Below, in pieces: positions 5,462 through 11,463 of a stretch of 64,000 bases of DNA. The stretch lies in NCBI GenBank assembly GCA_025611195.1, contig GCA_025611195.1_4718.2. One strand, given 5' to 3'. The stretch comes from a phage. Position numbers and translations under genes: made by a program. The notes below the pieces were generated by a model. It was not told the DNA's origin and made no database searches. It worked only from the letters and a program-made list of their open reading frames with translations. The stretch's first letter is position 1, and the number at the start of each line of letters is the position of its first letter.

Positions 5462-6019
5462 TTACTCCATCCATACTTCTTCGTCGTAATGATTTTCTAT
5501 CGCATTACGCCAAAAACGTACGGTGTCCAAACTAATCGGTGCGTAAAAATGTTGGTCAACGCCTACATTAAGTCCGTTGGCCTTCGCTAACATACAGCGA
5601 TGAATATGCCCGAATAGATTGAAGTAGCCCGGGTTTCTTTCGCTGGGTTTATGGCATAGCCAGTAGGATTCGTCATTGCTAATCGGCAATACCAACGGAT
5701 GTTCATAAACAGCAGCAAACCCCATACCGAGCAGTTTATCACGCCACGCGTCGAAGCTTAATCCTGTCGCTTTGTATGCGTCTTCGTCCCAATTCCCCAT
5801 TACCAATTGAACCTGGATATCAGAACGAATGGCTTCCACGAACTCGAACTTACCCCAATCACCTAAATGCCACAACACACTGTTCTTTGGAAGATTGTTG
5901 ATGGCTTTCAGCATATGTTGGTTCATATCGGCGACGCTTGCGAACGGACGGCGTGAATACGTCCATGTACGCTCGCTATCGAAATGGGTATCCGATGTAA
6001 AGAAGATGGGTGGGGTCAT
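5462..6019 (-). CDS. calcineurin-like metallophosphoesterase
   Basis: Motifs FTSDTHFD, LGDWG, GNWDED, GHIHR match the D-x-H / GD / GN(H)D / GHxH metallophosphatase pattern. Confidence 0.6.
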   Translation of the reverse strand: MTPPIFFTSDTHFDSERTWTYSRRPFASVADMNQHMLKAINNLPKNSVLWHLGDWGKFEFVEAIRSDIQVQLVMGNWDEDAYKATGLSFDAWRDKLLGMGFAAVYEHPLVLPISNDESYWLCHKPSERNPGYFNLFGHIHRCMLAKANGLNVGVDQHFYAPISLDTVRFWRNAIENHYDEEVWME

Positions 6020-6498
6020 TGATCTAATTGCTCCAGAAATGCGCGACCCGATTTACTTGCTTTTAAATGCTGTTCTGCGGAAGTAAGCAGAAGATCGGTT
6101 GGTGTGAATGCAGCGCTACCTTTCCACGCCGTTTTCAGTTTACCCTTTTCGATACTGAACTGAATCAGTTGTTGGGTACCGAAGTTAAGCGTGTTCGTCG
6201 CGGCGCTAAATACACCACCCATCATGCTGTAACCAAAGACTTTCACATTTTCCGTGTAGAAGTCATTGTCGATCAATTTGTTCTGGAGCTCGAGTTGATC
6301 GGACGGCAGCAATCCCCCATCAAAGACACTTAAAATACCAGCCAGGCGATACATACTCACCTTCCCTGCAACGCCCACCACGTAATTGCCATACACGGTT
6401 TCTTCCAGTTTAGCAACAACGGTGCGATCGTCGGAGGTTTTCATCGAAACCTCAATACCATCACCAACTTCTGTCAACGTTAAATCAACGATACTCAT
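6016..6498 (-). CDS. hypothetical protein (160 aa)
   Basis: ORF track; 4-nt overlap with upstream gene. Confidence 0.55.
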   Translation of the reverse strand: MSIVDLTLTEVGDGIEVSMKTSDDRTVVAKLEETVYGNYVVGVAGKVSMYRLAGILSVFDGGLLPSDQLELQNKLIDNDFYTENVKVFGYSMMGGVFSAATNTLNFGTQQLIQFSIEKGKLKTAWKGSAAFTPTDLLLTSAEQHLKASKSGRAFLEQLDQ

Positions 6499-7360: not shown

Positions 7361-7389
7361 CTCCTCCCCACACCTTTCCTGGGGAGGAG
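7361..7389 (+). terminator. stem-loop CTCCTCCCCA/TGGGGAGGAG followed by TTTTAT
   Basis: 10-bp inverted repeat with plus-strand U-rich tail in the helicase leader. Confidence 0.4.
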
Positions 7390-7423
7390 TTTTATCATAC
7401 TTTCTATTAATTCGAGCGCGATT

Positions 7424-9505
7424 ATGTTGGATAGAATCAATCGTTTAATGAACCGAATGACGGTTAAAAATCAGAGTAACAATACCGTGCATATCGGGGG
7501 TATCGATGCGTGGCGTCTTTCAGATGACATTCAGCGTATATGGGGTACCTCCCGATTTATGAAACACATGTTTCGTAATTTCTCTTCTAGTGGACTCAGT
7601 CTCCACAACTTTTACCTTCCCGATTTCGTTTATATTCTCGAAACGATCATCGAAGCAAAGAATACCCGTAGTAACAAACGCATGCTGAAACACCTTATCG
7701 AGATACTACTGCAGGAAACATGGTTGCAAAATACCACCATCGAGCAGCCTGCAATCCTCGATAAAGCACGCATGAACAAAATGCTAACGCTCTCTTTGTT
7801 CGATTATCAAGATGAGTTCATCGACATCTATAACCGTAATGTACCTAAGTATCGACTGAAAGGATACGTGTGTGCGATGGGTGCTGGTGCTGGTAAAACG
7901 ATCACAGCATTGGCATTAAGCGCCGCAATGAACGTCGATGTATTTGTGGTCTGCTGCCCTAAGAACACCATGCGTTCAGCATGGCAATCCGATGTAAACA
8001 AAGCCATCGTTGATCCTGCAACAGAAACCGCGTTCTGGTCGGATACAATGCCACCATCACAGCTGCAGAAAAGCGATAAATACTATTTTTTACATTACGA
8101 ATCGATGGGCTTATTAAACGATGTGATGATCAAGCATAAACGCACAGCGAAGCGCGTTCTTATTGTTGTTGACGAAAGCCATAACTTCAACGACAAGAAC
8201 AGCCAACGTTCCCAGCGACTGGTTGATCTTGTACAGACAATGCGTCAAACCATGAATGCGGATGTGCACGTCTTGTTTATGTCGGGTACGCCTGTTAAAC
8301 AGATGGGTTCTGAGATGATCCCATGTTTAGGTTGTATCGATCCGATGTTCCAAGGACAGGTGGTCGATAGCTTCAAAGCAATTTACGGTTTAACCAGCAG
8401 CCGTGCTAACGATATCCTCAGACATCGTCTTGGGTTCATGATGCATGTCGTACCTAAAGAGGCTTACCGTAAAACCCGTCCGGAAGTTCAGGACGTTTAC
8501 GTGAAGCTCCCTAACGGTAGCGATTATACCATCTCGAGCATTCGTGACGACATGGCGATATTTGTACGCGATCGGGCGAAGTATTACAAGGATAACTGGG
8601 GACATTACCGAAAGATTTTTGATGATGCCTTGGACTACTATCGTAAGACTATTCGTACCGACGGAGAACGTAAAGAGCTATCTCGATACGAATCGATTGT
8701 TGCGCGTTTCCAGAAAGGTTACGATCCCGTCAGAGACAAAGAAGATGCGATGTTCTGCAACGCGTTTGAAAAACGTTCCATCATGCCAGTTCTTCCTTCT
8801 GATTTAAGGGTTGCTTTCAAAGACGCCAAGAGCGTCATCAAGTACGTTGGGTTGAAAATTCAGGGTGAAGCGTTGGCGCGTGTTCTGGGCGCAGCGCGCA
8901 TTCGGTGTCATGTCGACATGGTGGAATACATCGACTTCGAAGAGTACATCAATAACGCCGAAGCCAAAGTGTTGATCTTCACATCGTACGTTCAGGTGGT
9001 TGAACGCGTCGATAACATGCTTCGTGATGCGGGCTTCTTACCGGAACCCATTTACGGGAAGACCAACAAAAACATCAACCAAATACTTGCCCGTCTACGC
9101 GACGATCCTGACAGCGGTCCCGCTATCGCAACATTTGATAGCTTAGCTGAAGGGGTTCCGATGCTGATGTGTAATGTGGGTCTTTTCCTGAACAACCCGT
9201 GGCGCTCATCCGATGAAATCCAAGCCATCAGCCGTCTCGATCGTGTAGGGCAAACGCAACCTGTTCGGATTTATCGTTTCATGTTAGATACAGGAAGCGA
9301 AGGTAACGTTTCTACACGTAGCCACGAAATCATGGAGTTAAGTCGGCAGCTTGTTGAAGAAATCACGGGCGTCAAATACGTGGTGAACAAGCAAGATGAT
9401 GTTAACTTGCAGGAAACGTTAGCGATGGAAGGATACGATCAATACGTTACCGTAAACACCTCGGAATACGATATTAAACCACGACCTGCGTTCTTGGAAT
9501 GGTAA
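7424..9505 (+). CDS. SF2 helicase (Snf2/DExH-like)
   Basis: Walker A GAGAGKT, DExH box VVDESHN, motif III SGTP, motif VI QAISRLDRVGQ; ATG at 7424 lies downstream of hairpin 7361-7389 (track start 7319 would include the hairpin). Confidence 0.7.
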   Translation: MLDRINRLMNRMTVKNQSNNTVHIGGIDAWRLSDDIQRIWGTSRFMKHMFRNFSSSGLSLHNFYLPDFVYILETIIEAKNTRSNKRMLKHLIEILLQETWLQNTTIEQPAILDKARMNKMLTLSLFDYQDEFIDIYNRNVPKYRLKGYVCAMGAGAGKTITALALSAAMNVDVFVVCCPKNTMRSAWQSDVNKAIVDPATETAFWSDTMPPSQLQKSDKYYFLHYESMGLLNDVMIKHKRTAKRVLIVVDESHNFNDKNSQRSQRLVDLVQTMRQTMNADVHVLFMSGTPVKQMGSEMIPCLGCIDPMFQGQVVDSFKAIYGLTSSRANDILRHRLGFMMHVVPKEAYRKTRPEVQDVYVKLPNGSDYTISSIRDDMAIFVRDRAKYYKDNWGHYRKIFDDALDYYRKTIRTDGERKELSRYESIVARFQKGYDPVRDKEDAMFCNAFEKRSIMPVLPSDLRVAFKDAKSVIKYVGLKIQGEALARVLGAARIRCHVDMVEYIDFEEYINNAEAKVLIFTSYVQVVERVDNMLRDAGFLPEPIYGKTNKNINQILARLRDDPDSGPAIATFDSLAEGVPMLMCNVGLFLNNPWRSSDEIQAISRLDRVGQTQPVRIYRFMLDTGSEGNVSTRSHEIMELSRQLVEEITGVKYVVNKQDDVNLQETLAMEGYDQYVTVNTSEYDIKPRPAFLEW

Positions 9506-9511
9506 TTAAGA

Positions 9512-9538
9512 AGCTCTGCCTGATGTCAGGCAGAGCTT
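9512..9538 (+). terminator. intrinsic terminator after helicase gene
   Basis: AGCTCTGCC-TGATGTC-AGGCAGAGCT followed by TTTAT. Confidence 0.55.
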
Positions 9539-9604
9539 TATGCTGCGTTCGCTGCAAAATCGTATGACGTATATGCGTTGTACTTATTAAATAGGACTGA
9601 ATAC

Positions 9605-11056
9605 ATGAAACTCAAACAAAGCTGGAAAGACGAACTTCTTGCGTTAGTAAATAGCAAAAACAGTTTACAGCTGACATTAGACGACGTAAAATTTGAACTA
9701 ACTGAACCGGTAAGCGAAGTGCCCGGAACGGTTACTGTCACGATCAAACCGAACGATGATAGCCGTTACTTTAACGAGCAGTCTCTGACCTACGTTCGTC
9801 GAGACATCGCTAAAAACTTCACCGGGATCCCGTTACGGGTTATCGTTAAAAATGATACCGCCGTAAAGGATATCATCAACACGATCGCTGAACGTTACGG
9901 ATTGGTATTTGACACAACCGTCGACTTCCTCGAATCCGAGCTGAATAAACAAATTACGTTCGCAGACACCGGTATTAAAGACATCACGGTTCCGGTTGCA
10001 AACACGTCTTATGTTTGGGCTGGTAATCTTCAGTTCAACATTGCTAACGATACGTTAAGCTTGATTACGATCATCAAGAAAACCGATCTTACGAATCTGG
10101 TTTATCTGGATGGTGTTGAAGCTGATACAACGGGATCGTTACTATTAGCAACGACCTCGGTTATCGACGAAAACGGAAATACCGAAACAACTGAAGGTGT
10201 CCTTGACGCCGCGCACTTCCAGAATGTCCTGAACGTCATGGTTCGTTATGGTGATATTACCAACGAACAAATGCAACAAGCAATGCAGACAATTAACCAA
10301 AGCGAAGACGTTCGTAGAGTAGAGGTGAGATCATACGGTGACGCCGAATTACTGGTAACCACCAAGAAAGATTGGGCTATCGGTAGCCTTAAGGGTGCTA
10401 TGGCTGTTGGACGCGCTTCACCTAAACCGATCCAATACGTTCTTAAAACAAAAGGCGGCAGCATTATATTATCATTAAATGGTTGGACAAATGTTTCCAT
10501 CGATTGGGGTGATGGGAATAAGACGACGGAGGACTCAGTCGATAATGAATATCGGCACAATTATACGGACACTACAGAACGTACGATCGTCGCTACGGGT
10601 ACCCCTACCAACGTTGAAGATACAGAGGTACAGCAAAGCTTCACCGGTGGTAACATTACAGAAATCGTTGACTGGAACAACGGATTACCTAAGGCCCCAT
10701 CATTACTTGCGGCGAACAGTTTAACTAAGGTTCCTAATTATATCCCGGCATACTGGACATCGTTAGAAGGTATGTTTACGAGATGTAGCGTTATTAACGA
10801 CGTGAACATCACCAAATGGAACACCCGCAACATTACTTCAATGAAGGACCTCTTCTACGGTTGCGCTGCGTTCAACCAACCGATCGGTTCGTGGGATGTT
10901 TCGTCTGTTAAGAATATCGACAATATGTTGTCTGGATGCTTCGCGTTCAATCAGGATCTGAGTGGTTGGACATTCCCGGCAGGCACTTCACACATTAACT
11001 ACGACGCCATGACCGCCGTGTGGAGTACTGAACACAAACCACACTTCACCGAGTAA
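9605..11056 (+). CDS. protein with C-terminal DUF285/BspA-like repeats
   Basis: Track start is TTG at 9578; ATG at 9605 has AGGA RBS; C-terminus carries repeated FxxCxxFNQ(P/D)(I/L)xxW units. Confidence 0.55.
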   Translation: MKLKQSWKDELLALVNSKNSLQLTLDDVKFELTEPVSEVPGTVTVTIKPNDDSRYFNEQSLTYVRRDIAKNFTGIPLRVIVKNDTAVKDIINTIAERYGLVFDTTVDFLESELNKQITFADTGIKDITVPVANTSYVWAGNLQFNIANDTLSLITIIKKTDLTNLVYLDGVEADTTGSLLLATTSVIDENGNTETTEGVLDAAHFQNVLNVMVRYGDITNEQMQQAMQTINQSEDVRRVEVRSYGDAELLVTTKKDWAIGSLKGAMAVGRASPKPIQYVLKTKGGSIILSLNGWTNVSIDWGDGNKTTEDSVDNEYRHNYTDTTERTIVATGTPTNVEDTEVQQSFTGGNITEIVDWNNGLPKAPSLLAANSLTKVPNYIPAYWTSLEGMFTRCSVINDVNITKWNTRNITSMKDLFYGCAAFNQPIGSWDVSSVKNIDNMLSGCFAFNQDLSGWTFPAGTSHINYDAMTAVWSTEHKPHFTE

Positions 11057-11073
11057 AAAAAATAGTTAGCATA

Positions 11074-11106
11074 TCTTCCTCCCTACCCATAACGGGCGGG
11101 GAGGAA
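11074..11106. terminator. stem-loop between convergent genes (CTTCCTCCC/GGGAGGAAG)
   Basis: 9-bp inverted repeat between the ends of 9605-11056 (+) and 11125-11463 (-). Confidence 0.5.
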
Positions 11107-11124
11107 GGTTTATGTGGCTATGAC

Positions 11125-11463
11125 TTAGAACCAGAGTTCTTTCATGAGGTAGGCTTCCATATCGTAGATAAGCCACTCGTCAGGAATTTCTAAAGGATCG
11201 TCTTCGGTTAAGGTCAGCATGTGCAGGGCGAACGCACGCTTAATATCGTTCAGCAGTTTCTCGTCGTCGTAACCTTCAGGTAACTTACGGTCTACCAGTT
11301 GGGTTTGTTTATAGACAGCACAGAACGCTTCTGGGCTGTGTTTGTCCATCGGAAATTGTTCAGCAGCCTGAACCATCGTCAACGTCCAGCTTACAACATT
11401 GTAGCGCTCACCGTTAATTTCACTGAACTGATCATCGATTAAACAGATTTGTTGTACGTTCAT
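11125..11463 (-). CDS. hypothetical protein (112 aa)
   Basis: ORF track; 4-nt overlap with upstream gene. Confidence 0.55.
   Translation of the reverse strand: MNVQQICLIDDQFSEINGERYNVVSWTLTMVQAAEQFPMDKHSPEAFCAVYKQTQLVDRKLPEGYDDEKLLNDIKRAFALHMLTLTEDDPLEIPDEWLIYDMEAYLMKELWF

Follow-up and report, generated by a model that had tools for sequence, protein, structure and literature searches.

Escherichia phage vB_EcoM_Goslar is a nucleus-forming jumbo phage of the Chimalliviridae. Its gp161 is named a BspA-family leucine-rich repeat (LRR) surface protein in RefSeq. Basu et al. (bioRxiv 10.64898/2026.04.21.720040) recently counted it among the ten DUF7941 proteins of the Goslar virion, assigned it an LRR/beta-helix domain and proposed that it acts in host recognition. 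According to the same preprint, gp161 is present in virions purified on caesium chloride (CsCl), with 27 peptides, 53.8% coverage and an estimated 74/111/174 copies (Table S4); purified gp22, another DUF7941 protein, forms filaments in negative-stain electron microscopy (EM), and for gp127, a DUF7941 protein of phiKZ, the N-terminal domain was modelled in the outer peripheral baseplate. The preprint proposes baseplate-anchored DUF7941 filaments, a "fibre cloud" for host recognition. The other closely related group comprises the PARCEL/DUF285 proteins of Mollicutes, Listeria and other microbes (Roske et al. 2010, PMC2996958), which are built from 25-26-residue tandem units with the core F/L..C..FNQ(D/P)(I/L)..W. 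Here we describe a 483-residue protein that combines both kinds of domain, encoded at positions 9605-11056 on the plus strand of a 64,000-nucleotide (nt) stretch of phage DNA (assembly GCA_025611195.1, contig GCA_025611195.1_4718.2), hereafter the window.

The window is 93.6% identical in nucleotide sequence to Goslar, and the protein corresponds to gp161 (YP_009820846.1; HOV27_gp161) in length (483 residues), in identity (91.7% amino acid and 93.6% nucleotide), in its succession of DUF7941 and LRR domains and in its neighbours, a SNF2-type helicase gene upstream and convergent genes for 112 and 297 residues downstream. The flanking genes are also the same in contig CAUIQD010000007.1. About 8% of residues differ from gp161, and the window represents another Goslar-like phage; the best protein matches (96%) come from draft assemblies labelled Salmonella and Shigella. 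The boundaries first proposed for the gene are right, because an AGGA sequence precedes the ATG at 9605 by 8 nt and because the close orthologues, all of 483 residues, begin identically with MKLKQSW. A TTG start at 9578, which would extend the open reading frame (ORF), is unsupported by the orthologues. A tblastn search of the window with the protein returned no paralogue; other DUF7941 genes lie elsewhere in the genome. The repeats and likely role of this protein are already public for an orthologue of ~92% identity, through its RefSeq name and the 2026 preprint, and the original prediction of a phage protein with DUF285/BspA-like repeats is correct but ordinary. What we add is the contrast between a conserved N-terminus and a variable C-terminus, a 584-residue paralogue in the tail-fibre locus and the exchange of a cassette between paralogues, the last of which is a modest new lead. 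The gene is composed of the following features.

9593..9596, plus strand: AGGA ribosome-binding site, 8 nt 5' of the ATG at 9605 (direct sequence reading)
9605..11056, plus strand: coding sequence, 483 residues and stop, orthologue of Goslar gp161 (ORF, identity, synteny)
9614..10243, plus strand: DUF7941 (PF25613) N-terminal virion module by profile search, residues 4-213, a globular part followed by a linker
10055..10105, plus strand: conserved linker motif LSLITIIKKTDLTNLVY, residues 151-167, pattern L..II....L.GL.Y (40-sequence alignment)
10139..10315, plus strand: predicted short helical region between linker and beta-sandwich, residues ~179-237 (helices 179-184, 202-215 and 220-230; predicted local distance difference test, pLDDT, >85)
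10316..10639, plus strand: predicted small beta-sandwich or jelly-roll-like domain, residues ~238-345, with an invariant WGDG (residues 301-304) and the most variable loops
10437..10677, plus strand: position equivalent to the exchangeable cassette (gene nt 833-1073, residues ~278-358), from the paralogue pair of CAUIQD010000007.1
10640..11014, plus strand: predicted LRR-like solenoid, residues ~346-470, with a conserved tryptophan ladder
10757..10972, plus strand: DUF285/PARCEL repeat match, residues 385-456, with units at 386-411 (degenerate), 412-437 and 437-462 (profiles, self-similarity, DNA spacing)

By sequence, the C-terminal part is a member of the DUF285/PARCEL family with a predicted LRR fold, and it is "BspA-like" only in the loose sense of the NCBI product name. 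The Pfam profile DUF285 (PF03382) matches at 78.2 bits (cut-off 25, E 5.3e-22), or 81 bits when the C-terminus is searched in isolation, and TIGR02167, now called PARCEL repeat, matches over two stretches of tandem units at 32.4 bits (cut-off 30). The likeness to the 26-residue surface-protein repeat that had been suspected is therefore borne out, clearly by the former profile and narrowly by the latter. The BspA/TpLRR-type family proper is a different matter: LRR_5 (PF13306) reached only 15.1 bits (E 0.022, cut-off 27.7) with the isolated C-terminus and gave no report with the full protein. The profile of the Mbov_0838 family PARCEL lipoproteins (NF045896) stayed at 54.1 bits against a cut-off of 500, with only the common repeats matching.

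The two clearest units, residues 412-437 (SMKDLFYGCAAFNQPIGSWDVSSVKN) and 437-462 (NIDNMLSGCFAFNQDLSGWTFPAGTS), align without gaps at a BLOSUM62 score of 43, while the best window in 500 shuffles of the remaining protein averaged 10.5 (standard deviation 5.0) and never exceeded 31. The periodicity is also visible at the DNA level as a spacing of 75 nt, or 25 codons, between 10859-10878 and 10934-10953. The tandem units are thus real; the motif by which they were first described, FxxCxxFNQ(P/D)(I/L)xxW..S, is idealised, slightly so, as the second unit has L in place of the initial F and no S at its end. With the PARCEL proteins of Roske et al. the phage protein shares the unit length and core, the alternation of variable hydrophilic with conserved hydrophobic positions and the passing of both profile thresholds. 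It differs in having approximately three recognisable units where bacterial proteins have many, in the fusion of its repeats to a virion domain and in the lack of a signal peptide, lipobox or membrane anchor. Membrane or surface targeting is common in the PARCEL family, albeit not universal, whereas the N-terminus here (MKLKQSWKDELLALVNSKNS) has no hydrophobic signal sequence and lies within DUF7941. We accordingly rejected a bacterial-type surface lipoprotein displayed by the host, since the protein has neither signal peptide nor lipobox. The dyad symmetry of PARCEL coding DNA is likewise not evident: a search run without a control found only a palindrome with 12-nt arms at 10875-10892 (92% complementary) and a weak 18-nt inverted pair, and we do not consider PARCEL palindromes to be convincingly present.

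The structure prediction that had been suggested as a check agrees with this assignment. An AlphaFold2 monomer model built from a 40-sequence alignment is confident for residues ~180-483 (pLDDT ~85-97), and its C-terminal half ends in a short-repeat solenoid that superposes on solved LRR structures. Six tryptophans (W357, W384, W405, W430, W455 and W473), each at least 90% conserved among 40 homologues, mark about five coils of this solenoid. The top Foldseek match, a weak one (E 0.14), is a phiKZ outer peripheral baseplate entry. Searching PDB sequences with either the protein or the 40-sequence profile returned nothing meaningful, DUF285 and DUF7941 relatives being undetectable among solved structures. 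The original prediction was to be given up if no repeat family matched and the predicted fold proved unrelated to LRR-like surface repeats; a repeat family does match, and the predicted fold is LRR-like.

These repeats had been called unusual in a phage, which does not hold. A tblastn search with the DUF285 part matched 102 phage records, among them those of 39 Synechococcus phages, 15 Lak megaphages and jumbo phages of Aeromonas, Campylobacter, Serratia and Vibrio. The family as a whole has a wide distribution that takes in Mollicutes, Listeria and algae as well as giant viruses and many large phages. As a separate observation, the 320-kb genome of Vibrio phage vB_VpaM_sm033 (OV032902.1) matches the DUF285 region of our query in 26 separate places, the matched place being unannotated; judged from these matches, it is a large expansion of the repeat family within one phage genome.

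The N-terminal part, which the original prediction had missed, carries a chimallivirus virion module that, on profile and alignment evidence, ties the protein to the particle. DUF7941 matches residues 4-213 at 87.3 bits (cut-off 27; profile positions 5-221 of 276), and the module also matches PHROG 1037 (phrog_1037), "virion structural protein", at E 1e-20. The N-terminal 290 residues align with all ten Goslar DUF7941 proteins and share with them the motifs RRDIAK, RYGL, SxVWxG and L..II....L.GL.Y. A DUF7941 module at the N-terminus followed by a putative host-recognition domain is also the arrangement of Goslar gp86 and gp92, which carry added C-terminal domains of their own.

The last of the four motifs lies in the linker and is common to Goslar gp22, gp31, gp33, gp34 and gp86. 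Of the ten columns that are invariant in the 40-sequence alignment, five belong to it (T155, I156, I157, L165 and Y167), and a sixth, L179, lies just downstream. This stretch is nevertheless poorly predicted, with pLDDT <50 over residues 122-175. Conservation combined with low confidence is the pattern expected for a strand that becomes ordered only upon docking on a partner, and we presume that the linker motif may serve as a docking strand for head-to-tail assembly, a role taken from the AlphaFold predictions of the preprint (10.64898/2026.04.21.720040).

The two halves of the protein evolve very differently. Among 21 orthologues of 480-485 residues, the DUF7941 part has a mean identity of 92% to the window protein (minimum 85%); in the C-terminal regions the values are 60-79% (minima 27-57%). 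The least conserved stretches are residues 311-350, which form hypervariable loops, and 361-370. In the alignment this is the pattern of a receptor-binding protein, a conserved N-terminal anchor with a variable and exchangeable C-terminal tip.

Goslar-like genomes additionally carry a 584-residue paralogue with DUF7941 and DUF285 (e.g., P0096), whose alignment covers 92% of the query, the window protein, at 46-48% identity. The overall architecture is the same; the paralogue differs in having roughly twice as many PARCEL units and in lying in the tail-fibre locus. In contig CAUIQD010000007.1 it adjoins a gp91-like DUF7941 gene and a tail-fibre gene, in the slot of Goslar gp92/gp93, and the contig also has a gp161-type gene at the syntenic locus. 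We rejected the possibility that the paralogue is Goslar gp86 or gp92 itself, as those proteins have 870 and 1198 residues. When the two genes of this contig (GCA_961210045.1; extracted loci L003, 6001-7755, and L004, 4001-5443) were compared, gene nt 833-1073 (241 nt) were 88.8% identical, and elsewhere the genes were ~66% identical or showed nothing detectable. Because the 88.8% tract sits inside otherwise so divergent genes, the comparison indicates that a cassette of ~80 residues has been exchanged between paralogues by recombination or gene conversion; it spans the WGDG sandwich and the first coil of the solenoid. At the equivalent position, the window gene and the 584-residue paralogue have only a 22-nt identical core in common, and several discrete cassette types occur among otherwise close orthologues.

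It is possible, although we hold this only tentatively and consider it doubtful as a whole, that the WGDG segment (residues ~278-358) and not the PARCEL repeats is the specificity-determining cassette, shuffled by gene conversion between the gp161 locus and the tail-fibre-locus DUF7941-LRR paralogue into at least four discrete types among orthologues that are otherwise 77-96% identical. If so, the DUF7941 filament cloud would gain diverse binding tips through exchange of cassettes within a genome, and these proteins would be the first LRR-type phage receptor-binding proteins to be defined. In any case, the anchor/tip pattern and the exchanged cassette mark the segment to mutate first.

Taking both halves together, we think it probable, with some reservation, that this is a virion protein of a Goslar-like phage whose DUF7941 module sits in baseplate-anchored filaments and whose tip, made of beta-sandwich and LRRs, attaches to a structure on the host surface. 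In favour of this picture we count the domain matches, the orthology and synteny with gp161, the virion and filament data on Goslar proteins, the baseplate modelling of phiKZ gp127 together with the weak Foldseek match, the conserved anchor with its variable tip, the tail-fibre-locus paralogue and its exchanged cassette, and the linker motif common to DUF7941 paralogues. Domain architecture, predicted fold, orthology and evolutionary pattern come from the present analysis, and virion association was shown by Basu et al. for the orthologue. The DUF7941 module, globular domain and linker strand together, would insert into, or cap, head-to-tail DUF7941 filaments that would radiate from the peripheral baseplate. 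The C-terminal half, a beta-sandwich followed by a DUF285/PARCEL LRR solenoid of about five coils, would project from the filament as a ligand-binding tip and would make the first contact with the host surface structure, probably one of low affinity and multivalent. An adhesin-like or host-interaction module had already been suggested from the repeats, and that suggestion gains support from the repeat-family matches, from the confident C-terminal model and from virion proteomics, which had been named as a check and exists for the ~92%-identical orthologue gp161 (27 peptides, 54% coverage, ~111 copies).

Several points weigh against this interpretation. The gene is surrounded by genes for replication and transcription, namely two for helicases and one for an RNA polymerase beta subunit; the tail modules are far away and are coded on the other strand. 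The N-terminal model is poor, with pLDDT <60 over residues 1-175, and the fold of that domain is thus unconfirmed by the model. The head-to-tail filament proposal of Basu et al. (10.64898/2026.04.21.720040) is founded on AlphaFold 3 predictions and on negative-stain EM of gp22 only; their Goslar cryo-EM maps contain no baseplate density for DUF7941 proteins, and the "fibre cloud" is put forward as a speculative model. Their mass-spectrometry list also includes PhuZ and chimallin, unexpected virion parts, so that co-purification is possible. Finally, the literature names no binding partner for any DUF285/PARCEL domain, we found in it no experimental receptor binding or host-range effect for gp161 or any DUF285 domain, and searches of the PDB yielded no solved structure of a DUF285/PARCEL domain.

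The same tip could instead bind mucus, glycans or other environmental polymers of the gut, as has been proposed for Ig-like capsid decorations, and would then not set host range. It is mainly the surface proteins of host-associated bacteria that contain DUF285/PARCEL and BspA-type repeats, approximately 100 copies on long flexible filaments would suit such a niche adhesin, and the conventional tail fibres of Goslar (gp90, similar to P1 gpS) could carry host specificity. We consider this unlikely, as the exchange of a cassette with the paralogue in the gp92/gp93 slot of the tail-fibre locus fits the evolution of host range better.

A further alternative is an ejected effector that travels in or on the virion and enters the cell at infection. 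Its LRR domain would there bind a host protein, for example to weaken a defence or to assist in forming the early infection vesicle, much as the type III effectors SspH1, SlrP, IpaH and XopL use their LRR domains. That likeness is one of generic LRR fold, and plant receptors and BspA/TpLRR proteins score equally. The DUF7941 domain of phiKZ gp127 is modelled on the outer peripheral baseplate and gp22 forms filaments (10.64898/2026.04.21.720040), and a paralogue of the same architecture lies in the tail-fibre locus. A hypervariable tip with swapped cassettes is, moreover, typical of surface-exposed receptor-binding proteins, and ejection as an effector seems to us distinctly improbable.

Very improbable is a non-virion protein, intracellular or on the host surface, that is made during infection (e.g., for superinfection exclusion) and merely co-purifies with virions, as PhuZ and chimallin in the mass-spectrometry list and the replication genes next to it might suggest, since an N-terminus without signal peptide, lipobox or hydrophobic segment makes export to the host surface unlikely, the N-terminal domain family has the abundant virion members gp22 and gp23, and 54% coverage by 27 peptides was obtained from CsCl-purified particles.

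A phage virion protein present in ~100 copies, whose E. coli host is tractable, would lend itself well to the search for a DUF285/PARCEL ligand.

With the SNF2-type helicase gene (7424..9505), the gene forms a two-gene island on the plus strand, the remaining window being coded nearly all on the minus strand. It had been described as one of few plus-strand genes and as flanked by terminators. The first part is accurate: approximately 7 of the 52 ORFs of at least 150 codons lie on the plus strand, some of them overlapping and probably spurious. Two hairpins bear on the second.

9510..9539, plus strand: upstream hairpin between the SNF2-type helicase gene and the 483-residue gene, with a 13-bp stem (AAGCTCTGCCTG..CAGGCAGAGCTT); the fold of 9500-9560 has -28.4 kcal/mol, z -5.1
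~11075..11107, no strand assigned: strong hairpin between the 483-residue gene and the convergent gp162-like gene (11125..11463, minus strand), from the fold of 11055-11125

The upstream hairpin is terminator-like with a weak T-tail, and the equivalent site in the Goslar record is annotated as a putative terminator. The downstream region folds at -32.9 kcal/mol (z -5.7) on the plus strand and at -26.8 kcal/mol (z -3.6) on the minus strand, with an A8/T8 run at 11055-11062 that is 12 nt away from the stem; this hairpin is possibly a bidirectional terminator. A consensus terminator scan called neither of the two, and both were found by folding alone, with z scores taken against shuffles. Because the hairpins are visible by folding only, "terminator" stays a claim at the level of annotation. 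Strong hairpins do lie on both sides, one of them annotated in Goslar, while their T-tails are poor, so "flanked by terminators" is a reasonable description of them but not a demonstrated one.

A third hairpin was noted at 7361-7390 on the plus strand, where a G+C-rich stem of 10 bp is followed by TTTTATCA. It lies just 5' of the helicase start at 7424, at a divergent gene junction; Goslar annotates a terminator at the equivalent site, yet there is no upstream plus-strand gene to terminate.

The convergent neighbour at 11125..11463 (minus strand, 112 residues) is the orthologue of Goslar gp162 and shares the intergenic hairpin at 11075-11107 with the gp161-type gene. In purified Goslar virions gp162 was estimated at ~127 copies, close to the ~111 of gp161 (10.64898/2026.04.21.720040, Table S4). 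Further upstream, a 160-residue ORF at 6016..6498 (minus strand) matches Goslar gp158 in size and position. Goslar gp158, at ~926 copies, is among the most abundant unmodelled proteins detected by virion mass spectrometry (10.64898/2026.04.21.720040). The neighbours of the gp158-like ORF are phosphoesterase/HD-domain and helicase genes, not a structural module.

Near-complete Goslar-like contigs of 235-244 kb were also encountered in draft assemblies labelled Salmonella enterica, Shigella flexneri, Shigella sonnei and E. coli, together with a 91-kb Goslar-like contig labelled Enterobacter hormaechei (protein matches P0002, P0005, P0019, P0023, P0027, P0052 and P0056). Complete E. coli genomes and PLSDB plasmids gave no match, and the occurrence of Goslar-like contigs in isolate assemblies suggests phage carry-over or a carrier state in the cultures.
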